Positions 2,549 to 55,511 of a stretch of 64,000 bases of DNA are shown piece by piece. The DNA is from Pseudomonas phage PhiPA3. The notes beneath the pieces were generated by a model. The model did not search any database. It was not told where the DNA came from and saw only the letters and a list, made by a program, of their open reading frames with translations. How positions within the stretch are numbered: the stretch's first letter is position 1; each line of letters starts with the position of its first letter. The DNA is taken from the sequence record HQ630627.1; one strand, given 5' to 3'. The position numbers and the translations under genes are program-made.

Positions 2549-3742
2549 ATGCATTATCTAGATATCCCCGCAGTTAACGGTGTCCTTACGATTAGCCACG
2601 TAGCAACAGGTTCGTTTTATATGGTGTGCGCGACGAATATACGCGACGCCGCTATAAATGCTAATGGCCAACTACGCTTGGGTACTTATCAAAGTCCAAA
2701 ACTCCAAGAACTTTATCTACAATCTGACGAACTCGATTTTACGTTTATCGAAACGGCAGATAAGGAAGAGTCACGGAGTATCCGTCAAAAAGTAATGGCG
2801 GAAAACTATGGCAATGATAAGCTACTAAATCAGCAGGACTGGCCTAAGCTTACCGGAGTGTTTAAACTTGAACACTCAGCTACTGGTAAATTGATTATTG
2901 GTACCACTCAGGATATTATAAAACAGCACAGCTATCAAGCCACACTACTTCGAACTGGAAAGCATAAGTGTCCTGAGTTCCAATCTCTCTATGACCCGGA
3001 AGTTGGTACAAGTGCGTTTAAGTTCTCTTTCTCCATTTGCACTGATAAAGAAGAAGCTAAATCGGTTGCACAGGAATGGATCAAAGATGCTGTTAAACGG
3101 GGCGTTTATCTAACTGGTTCTACCGTTAAACCAGCCAAGGTTGAAGAAGTCGGTAAATTGTGCGGGGTTTATCGGATAACCTTCCCGGCTACTGGACATT
3201 TCTATATCGGTAGTAGCGGTCATGTCCGTCAGCGACTAGCTCACCACAAGAGTCGACTTAAGGCTGGGCTACACGCCAGCAGTCAAGTGCAGGAGTGCTA
3301 CAATAACAATGGTGGCGAGTATACTACCGACACCATCTATACGGATACCCGTGATGAGGCTTACGCACTGGAACAGAAGTTAATCGACTTACATCAAGTC
3401 GATCCATTGTTTTTGAACTTTGGTAGTGACGTGAAGTCGGTCGTCAAGGATCTTTGGGCTAATCCGGAATATCGTGATCGCATTATCAATGGTTCAGTTA
3501 AATCGGTTAGAGATCCAGAACGGCGAAAAGCTTACGGCGAAAAGATGAAAGCTTACTGGGCTACGCCAGAGGCTAAAGCTAAGCGCATGGGTGGGGGAAA
3601 TCCATTTGCCCGGAAAGTGAGTGTCTTTGGAATCGTATACGGCTCTATTATGGATGCGGTTCGTGCTAAAGCTTTGCCAGATGCTAAACTTCGCCAACGT
3701 TTAAAAGACCCTGAAGACAAAGAAGTCTTCTATGTTAGCTGA
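2549..3742 (+). CDS. free-standing GIY-YIG homing endonuclease with NUMOD3-like C-terminal repeats
   Basis: GVYRITFPATGHFYIGSSGHVRQRLAHHKS (GIY..YIG, catalytic Arg/His); C-terminal NPEYRDRIINGSVKSVRDPERRKAYGEKMKAYWATPEAKAKRM resembles NUMOD3 repeats; N-terminal GVLTISHVATGSFYMVCA is a second, degenerate GIY-YIG-like stretch. Confidence 0.75.
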   Translation: MHYLDIPAVNGVLTISHVATGSFYMVCATNIRDAAINANGQLRLGTYQSPKLQELYLQSDELDFTFIETADKEESRSIRQKVMAENYGNDKLLNQQDWPKLTGVFKLEHSATGKLIIGTTQDIIKQHSYQATLLRTGKHKCPEFQSLYDPEVGTSAFKFSFSICTDKEEAKSVAQEWIKDAVKRGVYLTGSTVKPAKVEEVGKLCGVYRITFPATGHFYIGSSGHVRQRLAHHKSRLKAGLHASSQVQECYNNNGGEYTTDTIYTDTRDEAYALEQKLIDLHQVDPLFLNFGSDVKSVVKDLWANPEYRDRIINGSVKSVRDPERRKAYGEKMKAYWATPEAKAKRMGGGNPFARKVSVFGIVYGSIMDAVRAKALPDAKLRQRLKDPEDKEVFYVS

Positions 3743-5096
3743 CGGGAGAACTTACGCGTTCTCCCAACTTTCTGAACATTTCCCGATAACGGATAAAATG
3801 ATGAGCAACAAAAATCGCAACAGAACTTTCAACCTGGCTGACGTCCAAAAGGGTGCAGTTACTATACCGGAATCCAAAGTGGGTACTGAAGCCGCTGTAG
3901 AGATCCCGGAAACCACTACCGCTGCGGTTGATCTGGAAGACCCTAGCTCTGAGAGCTACAATGATGACAAAGCGGTCACTCACGAACTGCCCGACGACGA
4001 CAAAAGCGAATCTGACGCTGGCGATCCTGTCGACAGTGATCAAGATGTTTCCGAAGGCACTGAAGAACCGGCATCTGTGGATGTAAGTGATCTCCCGGTA
4101 GAAACTGTCACTGAAGAGTCGCCTCAGGTACGTGATATCAACCAACTGGCTGTTGGCGAATGGACGCTTGAAGAACTCGAATCGTACATTGATGGTTCTT
4201 TCGGTAACATCTATCGTTCGAAGCTGGAAGATGTTCTGGAAGAGCATCGCCGGCGCGTTGAGAAACTCGACCATGCTTGGTCGCTGCAAGAGTGCCGAGA
4301 GTTCCTTACCCAAAATATCATCCCGGAGAAGACCTCCACTGGGGCTTGGAAGAACGACGTTACTCGTGCCCTGCGTCGGCCGGGTAGTTGGACTACTCAA
4401 GAACTCGAAGCGTGGGCGCTGGGTGAGATCAAAGCTGTAGGCCTGTCCACCAATGCCGAACTGGCGATTGAACTGAAAGATCGTTTGGGCCTGCAAGTAA
4501 ACACCGTTGATCCGGATAACGTGATCAAGGCTTACAAGGTCCGTACCGGTAACGGTCTGTCCACTGTAGTTCAAGAACACACTGGATCTGTTCCGACCAT
4601 TGCTACCCAAGCCCTGTCCACCGAAGCGAAAGCTGAAGCGGTCGCTGCCATTACTTACCAAGGACTCACTCCCGTGAACCAGAGCTACATTGAAAACACC
4701 CTGAAAGAATACGCAGCTGCGGTAGCGGTCAACAAGCCGGTTACGCCGGAGAATGGCCTACGTGCTCAGAAAGCACTGGACAACCTGCTGCGTTACGTAA
4801 TCAACCTGCAAGATCCGGCCGGCTTCAAATCTGGTATGGATATCATCCTGAATTTCGTTCGTGCAAACCGTGGTCCGCAAGGCGTGTTCAACGACACTTA
4901 CGCCTTCCGTTTCACTGAGAACCTGACCATGCAAAATGGGATTCAGGAATCTCACATTAACCTGATCACTCTGTTTAACGTCTACGCCAGTGAGAATCGC
5001 GAAGCTCGTGCGCAGGCCGATATCCCGACTCTGATCGCGCTGTTCCCCTCGAACAAGCACTCTCTGCTGCTGCAATATTTCAGCAAAGTCGCCTAA
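3732..5096 (+). CDS. hypothetical protein with acidic N-terminal region
   Basis: 454-codon ORF; alternative in-frame ATG at 3798 (MMSNKN) avoids overlap with upstream gene; D/E-rich N-terminal third. Confidence 0.55.
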   Translation: MLADGRTYAFSQLSEHFPITDKMMSNKNRNRTFNLADVQKGAVTIPESKVGTEAAVEIPETTTAAVDLEDPSSESYNDDKAVTHELPDDDKSESDAGDPVDSDQDVSEGTEEPASVDVSDLPVETVTEESPQVRDINQLAVGEWTLEELESYIDGSFGNIYRSKLEDVLEEHRRRVEKLDHAWSLQECREFLTQNIIPEKTSTGAWKNDVTRALRRPGSWTTQELEAWALGEIKAVGLSTNAELAIELKDRLGLQVNTVDPDNVIKAYKVRTGNGLSTVVQEHTGSVPTIATQALSTEAKAEAVAAITYQGLTPVNQSYIENTLKEYAAAVAVNKPVTPENGLRAQKALDNLLRYVINLQDPAGFKSGMDIILNFVRANRGPQGVFNDTYAFRFTENLTMQNGIQESHINLITLFNVYASENREARAQADIPTLIALFPSNKHSLLLQYFSKVA

Positions 5097-5164: not shown

Positions 5165-6700
5165 ATGTTTGAATTATTGCTAGGTGCTAGATTAGCTAGA
5201 CCTCCATTGGTTGATAACCGCTTTATCGGAGAAGTAAGTCCTTCTTCGTTTATTACCGCAAGCGCTTTGGCTAGTGCAGTCGGCCTATTAGCTGGAGCAA
5301 ACGTTAATGATGCTATCCCATGGTTACAATTTCGTTTTAATGGCAAGGACTATTACACCCCCAAAAAAGCCATTCGACACACAATTAGCTGGGAAGCATT
5401 AAATTCGGCGAGTCTGATCACTGGGAATAAACTAACCAAAATTGCCTCTAAGTTTTATTCGGTTAGGTTGTTTAAAGGAGCTAGCGTTAATCCGGTAACG
5501 GTTACGAGTGGTTATGACCTGGTACAGTTCCAAGGTTCAGAATGGAACAAATTCATGTACCATATCCACGGCCCTAGCTTCGCTAACCCAAGCAACACAA
5601 TGGCATCTGAACCCCTTGCTGGTGAGTGGGCTCAATACAGTGATGCTGACTTGGGTTTAGGGTATCCCGCTGATGGTGGCGCCGCTACATGGACACAAGA
5701 ACTCTACACCAAATCTGGTGATGCTACTAAGTATGCCGTGTGGCGCGGATACAATGGTGTGTCTTACTGTGGTTATGACGTATCTAACCTGGCGAGTCAG
5801 AGTTATGCTGGATGGCGCCCATTGTTGGAGCAAGTGGCCGATACATTCAAACCGACTGTCAAGACCATCGCTAGTGAAGCGATGGGTAATGGTTGCTGGT
5901 TTGTTTGGAACAACGACATTTATTTCGCTGGCGGTAACGGGTCTCAACAAACCGCAAGGATTATAAAAGTAGATAAGACAACCGGTGCCAGGACGGCTGT
6001 TCCTGTTGGCACGGGGTCTACACCGGCAGCGACATGGTACTGGTCATGTGCAGTTATTGGAGATAAGGTATATTTCTTTGGCGGTCAATCAGCTGCTGGT
6101 TCTGCAAACGCAGCTCAAAATGCCTGTGTGTTCGATATGGTGACACAGGTATGGACCACCCTTGCAAATCTTCCTGAAAAATTATACAGGCCCCGTGTAG
6201 CGGCGATTGGTACTAAACTCTACATCTACGGTGGTGGACTGGTTACTCCTCGCGACACACTGTACGAATATGATCCACAAGGTAACACCTACGTCAAGAA
6301 AGCTCATGGCGGTGAAAACGCATCGGATACAGCTGGACTAGCTGTGACCTCAGACGGTACTTACCTGTATGCCTGTGGTGGTTACTATAATGCCATGTCT
6401 AACAAGCTGAAGCGTTATAACCCAACATCTAATACCTGGGATGTCCTCCAAGCAGCACCTGTAGCCAACTACGAGAATGGTATTGGAATAGCTGGTGACA
6501 TTCTGTTGTCGGTAGGTGGTACTGGGACCAATATGGGACAAAAGGTATACATGTACCTGTTCTCTAAAAATGCGTGGGTGGATACAGGTATAACCCTACC
6601 ACTTTCTTATGCGACGGCGTATTCAACTGTTCTGAATATAGACGGAAAATGGTACGCATTCTCCCAGCAGAATGCATCCCTTGGAGAAATTGGTGGCTGA
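5165..6700 (+). CDS. fibre/adhesin-like protein: conserved N-terminal module + Kelch beta-propeller
   Basis: start moved to ATG 5165 (MFELLLG) by paralogy with 8375 gene (identical 15-nt atgtttgaattattg); N-module ends ...YAGWRPLLEQV; C-terminal Kelch blades IYFAGGNG, VYFFGGQS, LYIYGGGL, LYACGGYY, LLSVGGTG. Confidence 0.6.
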   Translation: MFELLLGARLARPPLVDNRFIGEVSPSSFITASALASAVGLLAGANVNDAIPWLQFRFNGKDYYTPKKAIRHTISWEALNSASLITGNKLTKIASKFYSVRLFKGASVNPVTVTSGYDLVQFQGSEWNKFMYHIHGPSFANPSNTMASEPLAGEWAQYSDADLGLGYPADGGAATWTQELYTKSGDATKYAVWRGYNGVSYCGYDVSNLASQSYAGWRPLLEQVADTFKPTVKTIASEAMGNGCWFVWNNDIYFAGGNGSQQTARIIKVDKTTGARTAVPVGTGSTPAATWYWSCAVIGDKVYFFGGQSAAGSANAAQNACVFDMVTQVWTTLANLPEKLYRPRVAAIGTKLYIYGGGLVTPRDTLYEYDPQGNTYVKKAHGGENASDTAGLAVTSDGTYLYACGGYYNAMSNKLKRYNPTSNTWDVLQAAPVANYENGIGIAGDILLSVGGTGTNMGQKVYMYLFSKNAWVDTGITLPLSYATAYSTVLNIDGKWYAFSQQNASLGEIGG

Positions 6701-6701
6701 T

Positions 6702-7337
6702 ATGATGGAATCAATATTGGGGACCATTGCGTCACCAGGTGACAACTTAGTACCAGGTCCCCAAGCTGTCGTAGCTGGCGACACCACCTATGGATATTAC
6801 GGGGAATTCTCTGGTGGCCTTCCGCAACCACAAGCATTGTGTGATCTAGTGAATGCCACTGAAGGCGGCTTACTGGTTACGTCAACGACATGGTTGAAGT
6901 TCTGCGATGGCGGTAAGATCTACTTCATGACCAAGGTTCCGATTAGGAATAACATGCGGTGGTCTGAGCTGGACGCCAAAGGCCTCGTTACCGGTAAACA
7001 AATTACAATCGGCAAGCATACGTACATCTGTCGTATCATGACCGGCATTGCAGATAAGGCCGCTGGCACAGCGGGTGGAGAATGGAACCGCTGGATGTAT
7101 CCATTGTGTACTACCCGACCCAGTGGCCCAGTTTGGGCTAACTTCACAGTAACGCAATTGGGCGTCACATCGACCACTAATGGTGGTGGTGCTAACTGGG
7201 TACAAGAAGAACAAACCTCTGCTCCTGCTTATCACTACTACCGGGGATTTACGGGTATTGCAGTGGTGGGTAAAGAGGTAAGCAATTCGAACATCGGCAA
7301 CTACGGCTGGCGTCCAATATTGGAACTTGTAAACTGA
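6702..7337 (+). CDS. fibre/adhesin-like paralog (N-terminal module only)
   Basis: ATG 6702 overlaps upstream TGA (ctgATATG); MMESILG...PGPQAVVAGD...GWRPILELVN matches N-module of neighbours. Confidence 0.6.
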   Translation: MMESILGTIASPGDNLVPGPQAVVAGDTTYGYYGEFSGGLPQPQALCDLVNATEGGLLVTSTTWLKFCDGGKIYFMTKVPIRNNMRWSELDAKGLVTGKQITIGKHTYICRIMTGIADKAAGTAGGEWNRWMYPLCTTRPSGPVWANFTVTQLGVTSTTNGGGANWVQEEQTSAPAYHYYRGFTGIAVVGKEVSNSNIGNYGWRPILELVN

Positions 7338-7347
7338 GGAGAGAGAA

Positions 7348-8019
7348 ATGTTGGAACTAATGCTCTCTTTGGGCAAACCTATATCTATCGTTGAAGGCGA
7401 CAACGGCCCAGGTCCCACTACTTTAGTCGCTGGTACTTCCCTTGCGGGGTATTTTGGTCTGGTACCCTCCGCCAGTTTAATTGGTGGTGATGCGCTTGCT
7501 ACACTGACTGGCATGACTGCTGGTACTTTACAGAACGACACTACCCCGTGGATGAAATTTGCATACAACAACAAAGCATTGTTCATTGCACAGAAGTCTA
7601 TTCGGTATGGCATGTCGTGGGACAGCTTAAACGCAGCAGCGGTGGCTACACCAGGTAAGACGATCACCATTGGTAACTATCGCTATAAGTGTCGTCTGCT
7701 GTTGATTGCCCCGGCTGACTCAGGTAACTCTAACTCCACGTTACCTGGACGGGAATGGTCTAACCTTATTTACAACGTCTGTACGGCTGGACCCTCTACC
7801 AAGGGTTGGGCCGCATTTACTACTGCCGACCTCGGTATTGGCGGTAGCTTCAATGGTCGATATAACTGGGGTCAAGAATCCGGTACAGCAACGTCAGGTG
7901 CTGGTCGAGCAGGCGTGGGTTACACCACAATTAACAAACTCGACTTCAATGCGTCTGGTAATACCGGTACGCACATGGGATGGAGACCATGCTTGGAACT
8001 GGTTGGTAAAATAGCATAA
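7348..8019 (+). CDS. fibre/adhesin-like paralog (N-terminal module only)
   Basis: RBS GAGGAGAGAGAAATG; MLELMLSLG...GPGPTTLVAGT...HMGWRPCLELVG; paralogous to 5165, 6702 and 8375 genes. Confidence 0.6.
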   Translation: MLELMLSLGKPISIVEGDNGPGPTTLVAGTSLAGYFGLVPSASLIGGDALATLTGMTAGTLQNDTTPWMKFAYNNKALFIAQKSIRYGMSWDSLNAAAVATPGKTITIGNYRYKCRLLLIAPADSGNSNSTLPGREWSNLIYNVCTAGPSTKGWAAFTTADLGIGGSFNGRYNWGQESGTATSGAGRAGVGYTTINKLDFNASGNTGTHMGWRPCLELVGKIA

Positions 8020-10541: not shown

Positions 10542-10885
10542 CCATACCTTCGATAGAGTTCGTTATGCTCTACCCGCGTTTACACGCTGCTCCAGGCTTT
10601 CCCTGGATGTGGAGACTATATCACCATCCTTCTCTTTCGAGGATCGGATGCTTCCTATTTCCACCCACTTGGATGTACTCCCTTACGGGATAGTCGTTGA
10701 ACGTTCTTCTCAGAGAGAAGCTTCGCTGCGGATTGCCCAATACATGTGTCTTTTACCATACCCAGTGAGTTAGACTGGCCATCTAGTATATCGCTATCTA
10801 GACTTGGTGCACATGTCTCTAAGGATTTCCCCGTCAATTAAAGAAGTTTGCATCAAGTGTTCCAACTTGATGGGACTAATATTTA
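10542..10885 (-). mobile_element. group I intron (ORF-less) in DNA polymerase gene
   Basis: minus-strand RNA has R-like GUUCAACGACUAUCC and S-like GAUAUAGUCUCC elements (P7 GACUAU/AUAGUC); exon ends in U, intron ends GGUAUGG (G); exon stop codon UAA is first intron triplet; splicing gives ADLD|IVSTYP. Confidence 0.7.
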
Positions 10886-12709
10886 ATCCAGATCAGCCAC
10901 GTGCGTAAACAAAAGTGTGTTGTAGTCGGGTAAGTCTTTGACACACTTCAGTCCGTTGGGTCCAGCCATGTACGAAGGCAGGGTAACGATCCAGGAATCG
11001 TGGCCAACAACATAGCTATCAAGATCATGAACCATCTGATCAGAGCTTGAACCAATTACACAGGGTTCAGGCCGCTTGAGATACCAGAAGTGCATGTCGT
11101 CGCACAGACGTTTCGGGTTAGAACTAAAGTTCTTGTAGTCCGAAGATTTCGAGAACAGAGTAATAGACGAAGCCAGGTCATTAATCTTTTCATCGAGTTG
11201 TTCCAGTCGAATGGAGTCGATGATGTTGTAAAGACCGTACCGGACTTTGTGGTTCTTCTGCATCTCAATGTGCCATTCGATACCTCCCAAGTAGTCAGTT
11301 TCAGCGAACTTCAGTTTACCAAAGTTCAGGCGCATCCCCACACCAAACCCAGGATGTACGTTGACACCCCAGACCAGCGAATCAACTTCTTCCCAGTGTT
11401 CTTCTCGTTCGACCTTTTCCTCACGGCGGTACTCGACTTGAACCCTCGGATCTTCCGGATCAATACCTTCTTGTAGCAGCTTCTCCTGAGCTGCGGTATA
11501 AACAGGGACATCGTTGTACGTGACGTCTACCTTATCCTTGCTCGGATCGTTGACCGACCAATATGGGTGGGCACCACTACGTTCAGCGATGGCTTTACCC
11601 ATCTTCTTCATCCAGCTGTTGAATTCCTCTTCAGTCTGAACAGTTTCCTGTTCATCCATGGAGAGTTCTTTCTTCAGGATGGCATCGAGGGCATAACTGG
11701 ATTCTTTACCTTTGGCCAATCGAGTTACACGATACGTGGCCATGGAGTCAATGCACTGGAACGACGCAGGTGCAGTAATCCAATGCCATTGGTCTTCTGG
11801 ACCTTTGGACTTGGTTACACCCGATGCCGTAGTGGTCATCGCTTGGTCTTGACGGTAATGGAAATACCGATAGTTCGGAGGAACTTGAGGATCACTGAAT
11901 ACGTTCTTCGGGTCAATGCCGTAGTTTTCCAGTGTGGTCAAGATTCGACTCATGTCGAAGTCGATATTCCAGAACGCGAAGAAGTCAGGCTTCCACTTGT
12001 GCAAACGACGCATGCAGTTGATGATGATATCAGCAGGCGAATTTACTACCTCAATTTCAATATTGAGATTACGTGCTTTTTTCAGAGTCACCAATTCTGG
12101 AATGCGTTCTAATTCGGCGAAGGTTTCGGCAACTGGGTCATCCAGATCTTTCACCCAATGCTTCAGATATGCCAGATACACGTTTTCCTTGTGTGTAACC
12201 GACATGCAGATAATCTGTCCCTCGTTCTCTTCTTCGTACACGTTGGTCTCGATGTCGCCACCGGCTACCGTGTTACGGGAAATAAGTTCCGGGTATTGCT
12301 CCCGGTAGTCGTTTTTGAGACAGCAGACTGAGCTTACGTCCGAACCGTACAGATAAGGGCTACGGCTCAATTGGCGCATACGTGGGTTAGGACCCATTGA
12401 GTAATCGCCTAACAACTTAGCGATCATACGTGGCATCTCCAGTTGAGTACAGGTGTACTTCTGGAGGTTACGTTCAAATTCGTAATCTTTCTTTTCTTTA
12501 TGATTTTGTCTTCCCTTCTGTGTAATCCAGAAGGGACGTTTGTAGTCTTCAACGACCCGAATACGTGGGATACGACGTTTGTCTTTAAGGTGAATGATTT
12601 CTTTGACTACGTGTGCATCATGCCTACGGCCAGTTTGGTCAGTCACATAAGTGATGTGTTTGGCTTCAATACCAACAACATCTTCTTTTGTAAATTGTAG
12701 GTCGGACAT
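10886..12709 (-). CDS. family-B-like DNA polymerase, exon 1 (3'-5' exonuclease domain to first half of motif A)
   Basis: Exo I GGDIETN, Exo II FAFWNIDFDMSRIL, Exo III YGLYNIIDSIRLEQLDEKI (like T4 YNIIDVESVQAIDKI); ends ...HVADLD. Confidence 0.65.
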
Positions 12710-52147: not shown

Positions 52148-52180
52148 GGGATTGAATAAAGCCTCCCCGAAGGGAGGCCC
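52148..52180 (-). terminator. minus-strand hairpin GGGCCTCCC-TTCG-GGGAGGC + TTTATTC
   Basis: reverse complement of 52150-52180; directly after helicase exon-2 stop. Confidence 0.5.
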
Positions 52181-52185
52181 TACTA

Positions 52186-52542
52186 TTAATTAGACCAAGC
52201 GTCATCGTCCATACCACCGATAATGCTACCCGGAACAATTTTGAGCGAGTAGTCTTCTTCTTTATCGATGTCCCATGGGATAATGCCACACGAACTGAAC
52301 GGCAGAAGAACATATTGGTCTTCTTCAGACGTCACAGTGTTCCGGTGCTTACCCCGTTGGATGGCGAGATACGATTTGCCTTTCACTTTGATGATGTGGT
52401 GGAACAGTTCTAGGTCAGGTTCCTGACCCAGTCGACGGCAACCGTCATAATAGCCTTTGTTGGCTACAACCTTCACGAAGTCTTCGGTGTTCTCCCGCAT
52501 GAGCTGGAGGGCATCAGAGCCGAGCTGGTGAGGACTGATAAA
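52186..52542 (-). CDS. DnaB-family replicative helicase, exon 2 (C-terminal 118 aa)
   Basis: FISPHQLGS aligns with DnaB VVALSQLNR (H3); EPDLELFHHII...LAIQRGKHRNTVT aligns with EQDADLIMFIYRDE...IIGKQRNGPIGTV (H4). Confidence 0.6.
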   Translation of the reverse strand, partial: FISPHQLGSDALQLMRENTEDFVKVVANKGYYDGCRRLGQEPDLELFHHIIKVKGKSYLAIQRGKHRNTVTSEEDQYVLLPFSSCGIIPWDIDKEEDYSLKIVPGSIIGGMDDDAWSN

Positions 52543-54344
52543 CGTGATACCTCTCGATGTGTTCAGTAAGGTTCGTTACACCTTACCCGCGCCATTATGC
52601 GCAGCTCCAGGCTTTCCCTGGATGTCCAGACTATATCTTCACCCTCGGTTTCCCGATAGGGTGCTTCCCACTTCGAGTTCACTTGAACTCTACTCCCCAC
52701 TACGGGATAGTCGTTGAACCTTCTCCGTGCCTTTCGGTTTAGGAGCTTGGCTGCTGATTGTCCAATTTCTACACTTGTTAAACCTTCATAGACTCCTTTC
52801 GGGTCTATTGTGGTAGTAGAACTCTGAAGGAGTTTCCAGCAATTCAGGAAGTACTCGTAAAGCATTACGGCTTTACGGCCCTAAATAAGTAACCCTTAGT
52901 TTCCTTATTAGTGCTCAGATTTAATCGAATTGTTTTCTCGTTTAGACCGGTTAGACGAGCTGCTTCTTTAATAGAAGCAACCTCAGTTATAACACCGGTA
53001 TTCACGCAGGTAACCAGAATGGCTTTAGCTTGTATTGGCTTGTCGATATACGCCGAATTATCGTACTTATTCGAATCCGTGCGGATTATCCAACGCTTAG
53101 CGTAGATGTATTTCAATCCACGACTTAGGTCGACTTGCAACTCCGCTTTAGATCTCCCACAGTGATTCGCTATCTCCTGTAAAGTAGCGAAGACATGGAG
53201 AGTATTCGTTTCTAGATCACTTACGTAGTAAGGTCCAGACAGATTATTCCTACTGTAATGAATTTCACAGTGCGGAACATGCTCTTTAAAACGAATGACG
53301 AAGTTGTCGATGGTTTCGAACCGATATGGTATTCCATACGCTGTCGCAATCTGTTTTACACGATTGAACTTCCGGCTCTGTCCAGTCCGCGTATCGAAAA
53401 CCGTTATGGTGAATATCGATTTACCAACTTTAAAATCGTTTATATCAACTGTTTCGTAATGCCATGGTGTTAAGTCATCCATGGTTTTTATTTCATACCG
53501 CTTGCCCCAAAGATAACCAGGCAGTTTAGTTTGAAAACTTACAGTTGAGTTACCTACACCAATACCGAGACTTCTGTTCATCTCGCTAATGGACCTGTAC
53601 GCAGTAACTTCTCCAGTTAGGACATCCCTAACCTTCGTACCAATAGGTGTTCCATTAAGACCGACTTCCAATGCATGCTGTGCATTTTCCGAAGCATCAC
53701 ACCATTCTAGGTTAGATACGTCGTTATTGGTCTTAACTCCATCAATATGGTTAACGAGCGGTCTTTTTACGAAACATTCGTTTGGAACCCATGCCAAAGC
53801 TACTAACCGATGAAATTTTACGGTACGATTGCAATTTCGATCGGGTACTCTGATATAACACGTGTAGTAACCTTTATCATCGAGTTTCACATCCGTGATA
53901 ATCGAATTCGTTTTGGTATCTAGCACATGCCCATTGGTATCAATAGCGTATCTTGGGTAGTTTGGTATATGCCTGAACCCATCGCAGTAGTAAATCGGTT
54001 CTGCGAATGTCATTATCTTTCCGCACCTTATTCTCAAAAGCGTGTTGTCCACGTCTTTGAAAATTATTTTGTCAAGGTGTTGGGATAGATTGGGAATGTC
54101 TTCACATTCGTACCAAGCAAGTAGACTGAGCCACTCGACTGTGACTGTATACTTTTTACCAAATAGAACGATATTAACTAATCCATTCTCTTCCGGTAGG
54201 GAAACATGTTTCCCCAATCGGTCAAATATTTGACCGTTTAAATCAATTCGGTATTCTGAACTACCAGGAATCTTTTTAATCACAGCCACACCCCAAGTTA
54301 AAAAATCAACTATAGGATATCTGTAATTAAAGGTAGGTAATTTA
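52543..54344 (-). mobile_element. group I intron in DnaB-like helicase gene, carrying HNH homing-endonuclease ORF
   Basis: core 52543-52870 homologous to intron at 10542-10885 (GUUCAACGACUAUCCCGUA, GAUAUAGUCU, CAGGGAAAGCCUGGAGC, GUAACGAAC); 5' exon ends CCU| with UAA as first intron triplet (same as intron 1); 3' end ...GGUAUCACG|; spliced protein ...NYTTP|FISPHQLGS aligns with DnaB ELNVPVVALSQLNR. Confidence 0.65.
52865..54289 (-). CDS. intron-encoded HNH homing endonuclease
   Basis: HRLVALAWVPN...VNHIDGVKTNNDVSNLEWCDASENAQHA (HNH H-N-H); GTG start in track; lies 5' of intron core. Confidence 0.7.
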   Translation of the reverse strand: MAVIKKIPGSSEYRIDLNGQIFDRLGKHVSLPEENGLVNIVLFGKKYTVTVEWLSLLAWYECEDIPNLSQHLDKIIFKDVDNTLLRIRCGKIMTFAEPIYYCDGFRHIPNYPRYAIDTNGHVLDTKTNSIITDVKLDDKGYYTCYIRVPDRNCNRTVKFHRLVALAWVPNECFVKRPLVNHIDGVKTNNDVSNLEWCDASENAQHALEVGLNGTPIGTKVRDVLTGEVTAYRSISEMNRSLGIGVGNSTVSFQTKLPGYLWGKRYEIKTMDDLTPWHYETVDINDFKVGKSIFTITVFDTRTGQSRKFNRVKQIATAYGIPYRFETIDNFVIRFKEHVPHCEIHYSRNNLSGPYYVSDLETNTLHVFATLQEIANHCGRSKAELQVDLSRGLKYIYAKRWIIRTDSNKYDNSAYIDKPIQAKAILVTCVNTGVITEVASIKEAARLTGLNEKTIRLNLSTNKETKGYLFRAVKP

Positions 54345-55511
54345 AGGAGTGGTATAGTTCCTCATGCGACGGAACAGCAGACGAATATCATCACCTGCTA
54401 CTTTCGCATCCAGACCAGTCTTTGGTAGCATGTTCAGGTAGTCAACCATCAGCATCTGGATTTCGTAACCCTGGGACTGGAGACCATCAAGGTAGTTGGT
54501 GAAACCACCAATGGTAAATTCAGTCGGGTCAAAACGGATCATCTTAACGTTGAAACCGTTCTCTTGCAGACGTGCACAGACATAAGCCGCAGCTTCTCGT
54601 TTGTCGATGTCAGCAACAATGATCTCTTCACCCGTTTCATTCTCACGGATATACTTGTAAATAGTTAGCAAGTTATCAGAGATTTCGTTTTCCAACGTAA
54701 CAAACAGCAACAGAGGCTTCTTCGTCTTGTCACGCATGAACGGACGGTTAAACAGAGCGATGTGCGAGAACAGCAACATTAGCATGTATGACTTGAAGTT
54801 GTGTTGCAGAGCCGCAGTGGTGATAAACTCGCCTCGACGAAATGCCCCCAAGCTACCCAGGATACGGTTAAATCCTTTCCAACCTGTTTTGAATGCACCG
54901 TCAGCAGACAGAGTAGTCTGTACCTGCTCAAAGAAATCTTCTACTGCTTCAGGCTCACTGAAGTCCAAGCAACCCATTTCAGCTGGGTGTCTACTTTCAG
55001 CACGCGCTTTGACATACGGATCGAGCTTAGCGCCCATCTCGTTAATAGCACCAGCGATATCGCCACTACCGCCACGGTTGAAAAGAAGCTTCTGCGAATA
55101 CTCTCGAACGATCTGCTTGATCTTTTCATCATTGAGGTGTGCGTTCAGCGCACTGCGACGAGAGTTGATAGCCCGCATAATGGACATCCCGTCAGGGAAA
55201 TCCTCTTTTACGCCATTGACTACCGCTTCGTACAGATAGTTTTCTTCCCGGCAACTCACTTGTACGGCTTGTAGAACTTCCGCCAAACTCGGGAAATCGT
55301 GCTTTGCTTTACTGTTCAGATCACCGACGAGCTTACGTAGTTCTAAGAACGTTTGCCGACCATGGTCGTGGTCAACAGTGGTATCACGGACTTCCAGTGT
55401 ATTGATGATTTCCGATATCAGTTCAGTTGATGGTGCAGCAGGAGAATCTTCACGGTGTTCCAAGCACAGCAGGGTAACACACTGTACGAGCAGTTGTTTC
55501 GGGGAGGACAT
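54345..55511 (-). CDS. DnaB-family replicative helicase, exon 1
   Basis: Walker B/H2 YEIQMLMVDYLNMLP (DnaB IDYLQLM); Walker A region reads AALQHNFKS (atypical); ends ...RMRNYTTP immediately before intron. Confidence 0.6.

Follow-up and report, generated by a model that had tools for sequence, protein, structure and literature searches.

The DNA polymerase introns of phages SPO1, SP82 and Bastille encode I-HmuI, I-HmuII and I-BasI. The T4 td, nrdB and sunY introns, which belong to subgroup IA2, have P7.1 and P7.2, bring the reading frame to an early stop and encode a homing endonuclease; their ORFs are looped from P6 or P9 and specify GIY-YIG or His-Cys-type enzymes. [quoted passage not shown] A putative group I intron with an HNH homing endonuclease has been described in the virion RNA polymerase beta-subunit gene (PhiPA3 gp210, phiKZ gp179) (Birkholz et al., 2024; PMC11620839).

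Here we describe an interval within a DnaB-like helicase gene of PhiPA3, found in a window of 64,000 nucleotides (HQ630627.1). From its sequence and predicted structure this interval is a subgroup-IA-like group I intron, predicted to be self-splicing (Table 1). Given exon continuity, the family membership of both ribozyme and HNH protein, covariation in the structure and in P1, and recurrence at the same site in divergent phages, we put the probability that the helicase gene is interrupted by a mobile group I intron with an HNH gene at about nine in ten. Such an intron is an ordinary, conventional mobile element. For its site in the helicase no description was found: a literature search whose coverage excluded the original PhiPA3 genome paper returned no paper that reports a group I intron within a DnaB-like helicase gene of a phage or treats gp131 and gp134 as exons.

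The locus shares with the gp210/gp179 intron the phage (gp210), the phage family and insertion at a conserved motif within an essential core gene, and in phiKZ the HNH gene (gp179) likewise lies 5' of the ribozyme core. It differs in occupying a replicative helicase gene, between Walker B and H3. As in SPO1, SP82 and Bastille, a phage group I intron in a replication gene is combined with an I-HmuI-family HNH enzyme, here a second candidate endonuclease beside gp210. P7.1 and P7.2 are shared with the T4 introns, whereas the ORF here occupies L1 and runs into the guide sequence and P2.

Table 1. Features of the interrupted helicase locus of PhiPA3 (positions in the window; a slash marks the splice site)
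Feature	Position	Strand	Remarks
Helicase exon 1	54345..55511	-	389 codons; PhiPA3 gp134, YP_009217213.1 (exact NCBI protein match)
P1 5' strand, CCU/UAAAU	54340..54347	-	last 3 exon nt and first 5 intron nt
Group I intron	52555..54344	-	1790 nt; boundaries set by aligning protein and DNA with alleles lacking the intron, plus Rfam
Shine-Dalgarno-like GGGGUG	54289..54294	-	5 nt 5' of HNH start; read from sequence
I-HmuI-like HNH homing endonuclease gene (putative activity)	52865..54283	-	472 codons from GTG 54283; in P1 loop
Internal guide sequence / P1 3' strand, AUUUAGGG	52879..52886	-	wobble G 52881
Ribozyme core P2-P9	52607..52900	-	RF00028 match, covariation
P2	52876-52857	-	core helix
P3	52851-52846/52669-52664	-	core helix
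P4	52841-52836/52757-52752	-	core helix
P6	52750-52719	-	core helix
P7	52712-52708/52633-52629	-	core helix
P7.1	52707-52694	-	core helix
P7.2	52690-52675	-	core helix
P8	52663-52640	-	core helix
P9	52622-52606	-	core helix
P9.1	52604-52587	-	3' peripheral hairpin within 52555..52606; covariation (helices 11-13)
P9.2	52586-52566	-	3' peripheral hairpin within 52555..52606; covariation (helices 11-13)
Intron tail, UGAACACAUCG		-	after P9.2; terminal G 52555
Helicase exon 2	52186..52554	-	122 codons and stop 52188..52186; Pfam match, alignment to intact helicases
Annotated gp131 (YP_009217211.1)	52186..52500	-	last 104 codons of exon 2; exact NCBI protein match
Terminator-like hairpin	52155..52178	-	read from sequence

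The helicase gene and its intron boundaries

Exon 1 is contained in an ORF on the minus strand (55511..54342) whose product has the C-terminus ...RRMRNYTTP, followed by TAA, as an earlier note on this DNA had read it. It includes the N-terminal domain, a divergent P-loop (LQHNFKS) and Walker B (..MLMVDY). Exon 2 starts with RGITFISPHQL (H3), with EPDLELFHH (H4-like) and QRGKHR further in. Pfam divDNAB (PF20307) matches the two exons in consecutive segments, at profile positions 1-239 of 356 in exon 1 (E 7e-98) and 244-350 of 356 in exon 2 (E 1.4e-45). When joined, the exons encode a 511-aa protein that is colinear with the uninterrupted helicases of PA1C, 201phi2-1 and phiKZ (gp118), and that aligns end to end, in one unbroken tblastn piece each, with the 60 best cultured-phage matches listed, all of them uninterrupted. 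The region of the splice junction agrees with PA1C in 22/22 residues and 54/66 nt, and with phiKZ gp118 in 19/22 residues and 44/66 nt; the peptide crossing the predicted exon junction reads ..NYTTPR / GITFISPHQLGSDALQLMR. By these alignments gp134 and gp131 are two exons of a single DnaB-like replicative helicase gene, an orthologue of phiKZ gp118, which corrects the annotation on which proteomics and localisation work has relied.

Searched against the PDB by sequence alone, the helicase profile matched DnaB marginally (E 0.08), and structure prediction was therefore used to assess the fold. The AF2 model of the spliced helicase (pLDDT 86.6) returned DnaB, G40P and T4 gp41 as its top 50 Foldseek matches (E down to 6e-16, ~490 columns); it matches full-length DnaB (E 6e-16) and has the DnaB fold, with an N-terminal helical domain and a RecA-like C-terminal domain. 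The helicase has no canonical Walker A motif (GxxxxGK[ST]). Its P-loop, AALQHNFKS, is divergent and has no GK, so the protein is classed as DnaB-like rather than as a canonical DnaB. In the account of Iyer et al. (PMC7824862), the family is a divergent DnaB whose ATP-binding motif, there termed Walker B, is modified. The exon junction falls between residues 389 and 390, after the Walker B strand (349-357, ..MVDY) and before the H3 strand (393-400, ..SPHQ). Both the DnaB-like host and the split between Walker B and H3 had been proposed in the earlier note and are borne out.

The intron opens with UAA, an in-frame stop codon for exon 1, and the 5' exon ends in U. At the 3' end, uninterrupted homologues read NYTTP-RGIT-FISPHQL, and PhiPA3 encodes RGIT in frame as AGA GGT ATC ACG (52554..52543). 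Because this motif is conserved in homologues and encoded in frame, exon 2 is taken to start at 52554 and the intron to end with G 52555. The 3' junction first suggested, between 52543 and 52542, lies 12 nt too far downstream and deletes RGIT. Removal of the intron as defined here restores the conserved, unbroken helicase reading frame. In every homologous intron a U precedes the 5' splice site and a G the 3' splice site, and each of the five complete helicase-intron homologues ends in G. Pairing with the 3' exon in P10 is weak (2-4 pairs) and offset by one nucleotide.

Beyond the gene, a terminator-like hairpin (GCCUCCC-UUCG-GGGAGGC, then UUUAUU) lies 8 nt past the helicase stop codon; it was not among the results of a consensus scan.

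Ribozyme core and guide sequence

Rfam Intron_gpI (RF00028) matches 52900..52607 over the whole model (1-253 of 253) with 83.1 bits (E 1.3e-19), against a gathering threshold of 50 bits. Homologous loci score 64.7-105.8 bits directly 3' of their HNH genes, and an Rfam Intron_gpI scan of intron-less loci gave no match. The core has an MFE z-score of -3.2. Over seven to 8 related introns, 54 pairs were 94.1% paired, and both sides had changed at 29 of them; slid alignments were 36-44% paired, and none of 500 shuffles reached as high a value. The covariation score was 0.474, compared with 0.126 or less in slid controls. In P7.1 all 4 pairs covary, while P7 is invariant and thus uninformative. Register shifts in the MAFFT alignment left P5a, P5b, P7.2, P8a and P9 unscored, and these were omitted from the formal count. 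A subgroup IA trait is present in the form of a 44-nt insert after GACUA, which forms two hairpins (P7.1 and P7.2). An ORF of 100 aa within the core (52563..52865) was dismissed as spurious, with no Pfam match and an overlap with conserved RNA helices.

The window holds a related intron in the PhiPA3 DNA polymerase gene (10885..10548; Rfam Intron_gpI 10895..10590, 71.7 bits). The two cores are 73% identical over aligned columns, with long identical blocks in P7-P9, and have in common the U/UAA 5' junction, a guide just 5' of P2, P7.1, P9.1 and P9.2. The polymerase intron is ORF-less, with a P1 loop of a few nt where that of the helicase intron is ~1.45 kb, and its guide, UUAGUCC, fits another exon (GGAU). 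The closest core among cultured phages is that of the phiKZ-group non-virion RNA polymerase introns (phiKZ gp71-73; KTN4 51.6-53.4 kb), at 75% DNA identity across 72% of the query. Of the two tandem introns at that locus, the second (L172) has an HNH ORF (2936-3940) and then the core (3903-4224); the host gene is a different one, and the HNH protein is 22.7% identical (fnug).

In the predicted P1, CCU/UAAAU pairs with AUUUAGGG over 8 bp, and U 54345 provides the splice-site U.G wobble. The exon contributes just 3 paired nt, and the strands of P1 are far apart. The guide lies just 5' of P2 within the final HNH codons (..L F R A..), which thus double as guide sequence and P2 5' strand, and the HNH stop codon (UAA, 52867..52865) sits in the P2 loop. 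The position of the guide is homologous to that of the polymerase intron guide, and Rfam model positions 1-26 are placed here. Exon and guide covary: GCU is matched by GGC in L087, GGAU by GUCC in the polymerase intron and, by eye, AAU by GUU in the RNA polymerase intron of L091. The U, the wobble G and the terminal G coincide exactly with the points that restore the reading frame.

With the Rfam score, the covariation, the 5' U and the terminal G, the earlier note's call of a group I intron is upheld, as are the proposed homology with the polymerase intron and the same 5' junction, which is U/UAA in both. The note had also placed a complete HNH ORF ahead of the core; the ORF is complete, but it does not merely precede the core: it sits in the P1 loop and shares sequence with the guide and P2.

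The endonuclease and the recurrence of the element

The mechanical ORF begins at GTG 54289 (54289..52865, 474 aa). The start is most likely GTG 54283, which would give a protein beginning MIKKIPG..., of 472 aa, as in the closest homologues; at the Shine-Dalgarno position, homologues have AAGGA or similar. The protein matches Pfam HNH_3 (26.0 bits, cut-off 24.8), NUMOD1 in its middle part (E 6e-10) and PHROG 59 HNH endonuclease (E 7e-36), and at its C-terminus I-HmuI_NUMOD-like with 21.5 bits, below the 27-bit cut-off. These domains, together with a family profile that matches I-HmuI (PDB 1U3E) at residues 12-104 (E 5.5e-15), confirm the HNH endonuclease predicted in the intron. By family the ORF is an I-HmuI-like HNH homing endonuclease of putative activity.

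The profile match covers the N-terminal DNA-binding and catalytic region of I-HmuI and, weakly, its C-terminal helix-turn-helix (residues 112-169). The protein is 2.7 times larger than I-HmuI (472 vs 174 aa), has a NUMOD1-containing middle part and carries Asn in place of the metal-ligand Asp before the catalytic His (NH vs DH). In our own reading, an extra N-terminal module of the protein resembles a second copy of the N-terminal DNA-binding module of I-HmuI. The 57 homologues cover 92-100% of the query at 28-68% identity, and in an alignment of 41 homologues H160, R161, N180, H181, N193, N202 and H205 do not vary. An IMG/VR scan with the HNH alignment gave generic HNH relatives only (34% identity or less over part of the protein).

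Six metagenomic phiKZ-like phages have the same intron and endonuclease at the same codon boundary of the helicase gene. The HNH homologues P0001, P0002, P0016, P0009, P0028 and P0039 are each flanked by divDNAB exon 1 and exon 2, and their loci adjoin PhiKZ_MCP. Besides PhiPA3, helicase clusters ending ..RN(Y/F)xxP number 5 or 6 of 120 listed. The closest helicase relatives (79-86% identity) are uninterrupted. A metagenome scan with the helicase alignment, of which the 80 best loci were kept, is no measure of occupancy frequency: the complete genes among these loci are all uninterrupted because split genes score lower. One metagenomic phage (L091) has an RNA polymerase beta gene split by an HNH protein homologous, at 32% identity, to that of the helicase intron.

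Proposed mechanism and alternative readings

From these features we infer splicing, the activity and specificity of the endonuclease, and mobility. On folding of the pre-mRNA, CCU/UAAAU would pair with AUUUAGGG 1.46 kb downstream, looping out the entire HNH gene in L1. The P3-P9 core would then carry out guanosine-initiated cleavage after U 54345 and ligate the exons after G 52555, giving an mRNA for the 511-aa helicase that reads ..NYTTP-RGITFISPHQL. On unspliced RNA, the UAA at intron positions 1-3 would halt ribosomes. By analogy with I-HmuI and I-BasI, the HNH enzyme may nick or cut helicase alleles lacking the intron close to its insertion site, single-strand nicking being our assumption, and repair from intron-carrying genomes would copy the intron in (homing).

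An ORF in the P1 loop that overlaps the guide makes this lineage suited to asking at what stage such introns are spliced, whether in nucleus or cytoplasm, and by what route their ORFs get translated. Antisense or transposon effects in the "HNH genes" of such phages may reflect blocked splicing of an essential host gene. It is possible, although we think it unlikely, that the HNH enzyme is a second inter-phage weapon like gp210 and that a conflict between splicing and translation is resolved spatially in nucleus-forming phages. Here the last HNH codons being both the guide and half of P2 would make translation and splicing mutually exclusive on one RNA. If this were true, the endonuclease would cut intron-less helicase genes of co-infecting PA1C-like phages and phiKZ; splicing would take place in the ribosome-free phage nucleus, and the endonuclease would be translated after export.

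The helicase might instead be truly split, with gp134 (389 aa) and gp131 (104 aa) assembling non-covalently and a dead intron relic lying beside a free-standing HNH gene. RefSeq does list them as two separate 'DnaB-like replicative helicase' CDSs, and both were tagged and localised as separate proteins, with separate proteomics entries (PMC10643120), although such entries would follow from the annotation used in the search and not from real protein ends. Long-read transcriptomics of phiKZ, in the conditions of that study, also failed to detect splicing of its predicted introns, so that activity of the helicase-intron lineage is not to be presumed (PMC10914365). Against this, annotated gp131 begins at an internal Met (ATG 52500) and is missing the SPHQ strand (H3), which is invariant; from 52554 to that Met the frame offers neither ATG nor GTG. 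The complete core, above the Rfam threshold, is preserved through compensatory changes among phages with helicases that are only 30-37% identical, which is not expected of a relic, and the U, wobble G and terminal G fall exactly where the frame is restored. We regard a split helicase as exceedingly improbable. A different P1 would be formed with the G-rich GGGGUGUGG (54294..54286, ~50 nt into the intron), which would put the HNH gene between P1 and P2 and let P1 sequester the ribosome-binding site. GGGUGUGG can form 7/8 pairs with exon CCACUCCU, including a splice-site U.G wobble, and its distance from the 5' splice site is typical; yet this complementarity is as expected of a purine-rich Shine-Dalgarno against a CUCC-containing exon. 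The candidate was rejected, as it is unconserved and the region is the HNH ribosome-binding site in homologues: L003, L004, L005, L087, L089 and L090 have an ordinary AAGGA/GGAG-type site, which does not track the exon. The pre-P2 guide, by contrast, keeps its position, changes together with the exon in three host genes and can be aligned with the guide of the polymerase intron, which has no ORF; pairing with GGGGUGUGG is accordingly very improbable.

The intron could also splice but be fixed and immobile, its HNH protein a decayed, inactive passenger. The Asn before the catalytic His would fit this, as would the lack of a close copy in cultured phages, where the nearest match is 29% identical; ORF and host-gene identities are also roughly parallel across loci, which fits vertical inheritance. 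The ORF is, however, intact at 461-480 aa in ~50 homologue clusters, with the HNH core residues invariant. Between distant phages the HNH protein is more conserved than host exon 1 (42-47% vs 30-37% identity), and between L003 and L004 it is 85% identical where the host gene is 74% identical. A decayed passenger is therefore improbable. The mobile intron we favour is also consistent with the patchy occupancy of the site among close relatives, as expected of an active homing element.

The helicase gene and its splice boundaries

With a probability of about 0.9, the PhiPA3 replicative helicase gene contains a mobile group I intron carrying an I-HmuI-like HNH endonuclease gene, bounded as listed in the table. 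The helicase intron belongs to a well-known kind of element. The earlier note had described such an interruption in a DnaB-like helicase, and its observation is correct, and well above chance. It also read the end of exon 1 (RMRNYTTP, then UAA) as we do. The HNH ORF is followed by ~310 nt without credible coding potential and then by a frame that stays open up to the stop codon at 52188..52186. Exon 1 matches positions 1-239 of the Pfam profile PF20307 (divergent DnaB-like ATPase; E 7e-98) and the downstream frame positions 244-350 (E 1.4e-45). As these segments are consecutive, both exons are parts of one domain and of one gene. In the Pseudomonas phages HPP-Temi and RVTF4 the locus has the same order (major capsid protein, gp119-like virion protein, helicase), and the helicase is uninterrupted (510-512 aa).

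Features of the helicase locus and of the polymerase intron (a slash marks a splice junction)
Feature	Position or sequence	Strand	Remarks
Exon 1 ATG ORF	55511..54342	-	ends ...RRMRNYTTP then TAA
HNH ORF, 474 aa	54289..52865	-	downstream of the exon 1 ORF
Group I intron, 1790 nt	54344..52555	-	ends at G 52555
Intron_gpI match (Rfam)	52900..52607	-	83.1 bits (gathering score 50), E 1.3e-19, full model
Exon 2	52554..52186	-	begins RGIT
Predicted ligated-exon junction	...ACTCCT/AGAGGTATC	-	corrected boundaries
Predicted tryptic peptide	GITFISPHQLGSDALQLMR		from the 511-aa (~57-kDa) spliced helicase; gp131 as annotated cannot yield it
Polymerase intron, 338 nt	10548..10885	-	ORF-less; splits the DNA polymerase gene
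Intron_gpI match (Rfam), polymerase gene	10895..10590		71.7 bits

The 3' junction had to be moved. The earlier note started exon 2 at 52542, and its splice product leaves a four-residue gap against the HPP-Temi and RVTF4 helicases, where homologues read NYTTP-RGIT-FISPHQL. The missing residues are encoded in frame (AGA GGT ATC ACG, directly 5' of TTT ATC AGT and preceded by ...ACAUCG), and therefore the 3' splice site is placed after G 52555. A site after G 52543 was rejected, as it would drop RGIT.

Residues 1-510 of the corrected product align as one tblastn piece with each of the 60 best cultured-phage matches listed, among them PA1C, PS119XW and phiHQ (86% identity), Phabio (76%), 201phi2-1 (73%) and phiKZ gp118 (62%). 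An AlphaFold2 model of the spliced protein, built from 44 sequences (mean pLDDT 86.6), has full-length DnaB, G40P and T4 gp41 helicases as its best PDB matches (E down to 6e-16, ~490 aligned columns). In the model, the junction between residues 389 and 390 lies at the end of a helix (374-390) between the Walker B strand (349-357, EIQMLMVDY, with invariant D357) and the strand at the H3 position (393-400, TFISPHQL, with invariant H398 and Q399), bearing out the split proposed in the earlier note, with Walker B on one side and H3/H4 on the other; further on come the motifs EPDLELFHH and QRGKHR. The P-loop is non-canonical (LQHNFKS), which agrees with the description of the divDNAB family as divergent DnaB (PMC7824862).

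These boundaries correct the annotation of a model phage. Two proteins of the 309,208-bp record, each with the annotation "DnaB-like replicative helicase [Pseudomonas phage PhiPA3]", match exactly: YP_009217213.1 the product of exon 1, and YP_009217211.1 a 104-aa ORF (52186..52500). [quoted passage not shown] Known PhiPA3 introns are those of gp65-66 in the non-virion RNA polymerase (PMC10643120, PMC10449902) and of gp210 in the virion RNA polymerase (PMC11620839); no mention of an intron in the helicase gene was found in the literature searched. In long-read transcriptomics of phiKZ, splicing of predicted introns was undetected under the conditions used (PMC10914365), and splicing of the helicase intron is therefore to be shown rather than assumed.

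Ribozyme core and embedded endonuclease gene

The Rfam scan proposed in the earlier note returned the two Intron_gpI matches in the table and no others in the window. The helicase and polymerase cores are homologous, as the note had claimed, with 73% column identity and identical blocks of 10-22 nt in J6/7-P7, J8/7-P7, P9 and P9.2. Covariation was scored over 54 pairs (P2, P3, P4, P5, P6, P6a, P7, P7.1, P8, P9.1 and P9.2) in an alignment of eight introns: five from helicase genes, a partial one, the intron of the polymerase gene and one from an RNA-polymerase gene. Standard pairs fill 94.1% of cells, a percentage inflated by taking the structure from one aligned sequence; changes on both sides occur in 29 of the 54 pairs, and the covariation score is 0.474. 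None of 500 shuffles did as well, and when the 3' partners are shifted 1-3 columns, pairing falls to 36-44% and the score to 0.126 or less. The double changes (for example 5/7 pairs in P2, 4/6 in P3, 4/4 in P7.1) are not explained by the structure coming from one sequence. Judged by these comparisons, the ribozyme of the intron has been maintained. P7.1 and P7.2 are formed by 44 nt inserted between the 5' strand of P7 and the 3' strand of P3, and on this feature the intron is assigned to subgroup IA. A 100-aa ATG ORF wholly inside the core (52563..52865, minus strand) lacks a Pfam match, overlaps covarying helices and is almost certainly not a gene.

Two candidates for the P1 guide were compared. 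The G-rich GGGGUGUGG (54294..54286), which lies ~50 nt inside the intron, is able to pair with the exon, but it is unconserved, and homologues have the ribosome-binding site of the HNH gene there; it was rejected. The other, AUUUAGGG (52886..52879), lies directly 5' of P2, forms 8 bp with CCU/UAAAU, including a U.G wobble at the splice site, and is homologous in position to the guide in the polymerase intron, which has no ORF (GGAU/UAA with UUAGUCC). Exon and guide covary: the introns at L087/L088 have exon GCU with guide GGC, and the RNA-polymerase intron L091, compared by eye, has AAU with GUU. With the P1 3' strand just 5' of P2, the whole HNH gene lies inside the P1 loop. The ORF-then-core order of the earlier note thus stands, but the two overlap: both the guide and the P2 5' strand are encoded by the last ten codons of the gene (..G Y L F R A V K P stop), with the stop codon in the P2 loop. 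This order is shared with phiKZ gp179, the phiKZ-group gp72 intron, Klebsiella phage phiKp_32 and L091, and is apparently characteristic of a lineage of introns in jumbo phages. An ORF embedded in L1 and overlapping the guide is an interesting architecture for a phage whose transcription is separated from translation.

The HNH ORF is complete, as had been claimed, and contains HNH_3 (26.0 bits against a cut-off of 24.8) and NUMOD1 (E 6e-10); an I-HmuI_NUMOD-like match scores 21.5 bits, below its cut-off of 27. Translation likely starts at GTG 54283 (MIKKIPG...), 5 nt after GGGGUG; the resulting protein of 472 aa is as long as its closest homologues. A profile built from 41 homologues aligns with the I-HmuI structure 1U3E (E 5.5e-15) over the N-terminal DNA-binding sheet and the HNH motif, with the C-terminal helix-turn-helix matched weakly, and PHROG 59 (HNH endonuclease) matches the protein at E 7e-36. 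Invariant residues are H160, R161, N180, H181, G184, N193, E195, W196, N202 and H205. By analogy, the enzyme would act as I-HmuI and I-BasI do. It is a second candidate for intron-endonuclease-mediated phage competition.

P10 is weak in the helicase intron. Of five alleles with the intron (PhiPA3, L005, L087, L089, L090), four begin exon 2 with the codon AGA or AAA (52552..52554 in PhiPA3), against CGT in all four intron-less alleles compared (L001, L002, L175, L176; 201phi2-1, where the pattern is unmatched, is left out). P10 pairing or endonuclease resistance may account for the difference.

Distribution of the helicase intron

The 57 homologues of the HNH protein (92-100% of the query, 28-68% identity) are all metagenomic, and the best cultured-phage match has 29% identity. 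At all six homologous loci fetched with their context (HNH identity 41-68%), the HNH gene follows a divDNAB exon 1 product of 386-415 aa; an exon 2 product (112-131 aa) lies downstream where the contig goes on, and a PhiKZ-type capsid gene adjoins. Rfam matches of 64.7-105.8 bits begin within the last ~30 nt of each homologous HNH gene; the scan gave no match at L001 and L002, which lack the intron. The insertion point is the same, in phase 0 (NFCAP/RKILFITPHQ, NFTSA/KGITTYTPHQ, NFCGP/RKITCITPHQ, NFTAP/RKITFITPHQ), and all homologous helicase introns begin with UAA and end with G.

Among the best 120 helicase clusters, five or six besides PhiPA3 (54-67% identical) end in ..RN(Y/F)xxP and a few read-through residues. 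Relatives at 69-86% identity are uninterrupted, as are the best 80 metagenomic loci wherever complete, in a ranking biased against split genes. The nearest DNA matches, in a phage BLAST collection without the PhiPA3 genome, are 78-79% identical over ~10% (9-11%) of the query region. In distant hosts the HNH proteins are 42-47% identical, against 30-37% for helicase exon 1, and in one pair the values are 85% and 74%. Patchy occupancy of a specific site is expected of a homing element; taken alone, the pattern does not tell ancient presence followed by loss from repeated invasion.

The helicase protein P0185 (372 aa) ends in ..DYLNMLSKSG and DRKSTR, before the common ..RNYxxP truncation. It could point to a different interruption site, ~20 codons upstream, or be an artefact of the contig or of a frameshift. 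At L087 (JGI contig Ga0246235_100570, an uncultivated phiKZ-like phage), an IS605 OrfB/TnpB (Cas12f-like) gene (6472-7677) lies directly 3' of helicase exon 2.

Related introns

Exon 1 of the polymerase gene ends ..THVADLD and U/UAA at 10886/10885; alignment with the helicase intron predicts a 3' splice site after G 10548, giving ..ADLD/VWIVSTYPNVSQ.. In L091 (2720-6719 of a 240-kb metagenomic contig), a group I intron (72.8 bits) with a 32%-identical HNH homologue splits an RNA polymerase beta-subunit gene; the downstream exon carries an Rpb2_6 domain, and the exon end and guide differ compensatorily from those of the helicase introns. The best cultured-phage HNH match (29% over 93% of the query) is in phiKp_32 (LC768500 28759-30469; L174 2417-4127). 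The group I intron core that follows it scores 51.3 bits, just above the Rfam threshold, and the flanking 'hypothetical proteins' of 417 and 300 aa have no Pfam matches; this is probably another unannotated split gene.

The non-virion RNA polymerase region of the phiKZ-group phage KTN4 (49125-54411; L172) holds two tandem Rfam group I introns (2451-2746 and 3903-4224; 87.5 and 74.7 bits), and in the second a gp72-type HNH gene (2936-3940) precedes the core, as in the helicase intron. An antisense screen found a strong phenotype for phiKZ072 (PMC12571901). If that ORF is looped out of P1 in an intron that interrupts an essential RNA polymerase gene, the oligomer might disturb splicing rather than remove a nuclease.
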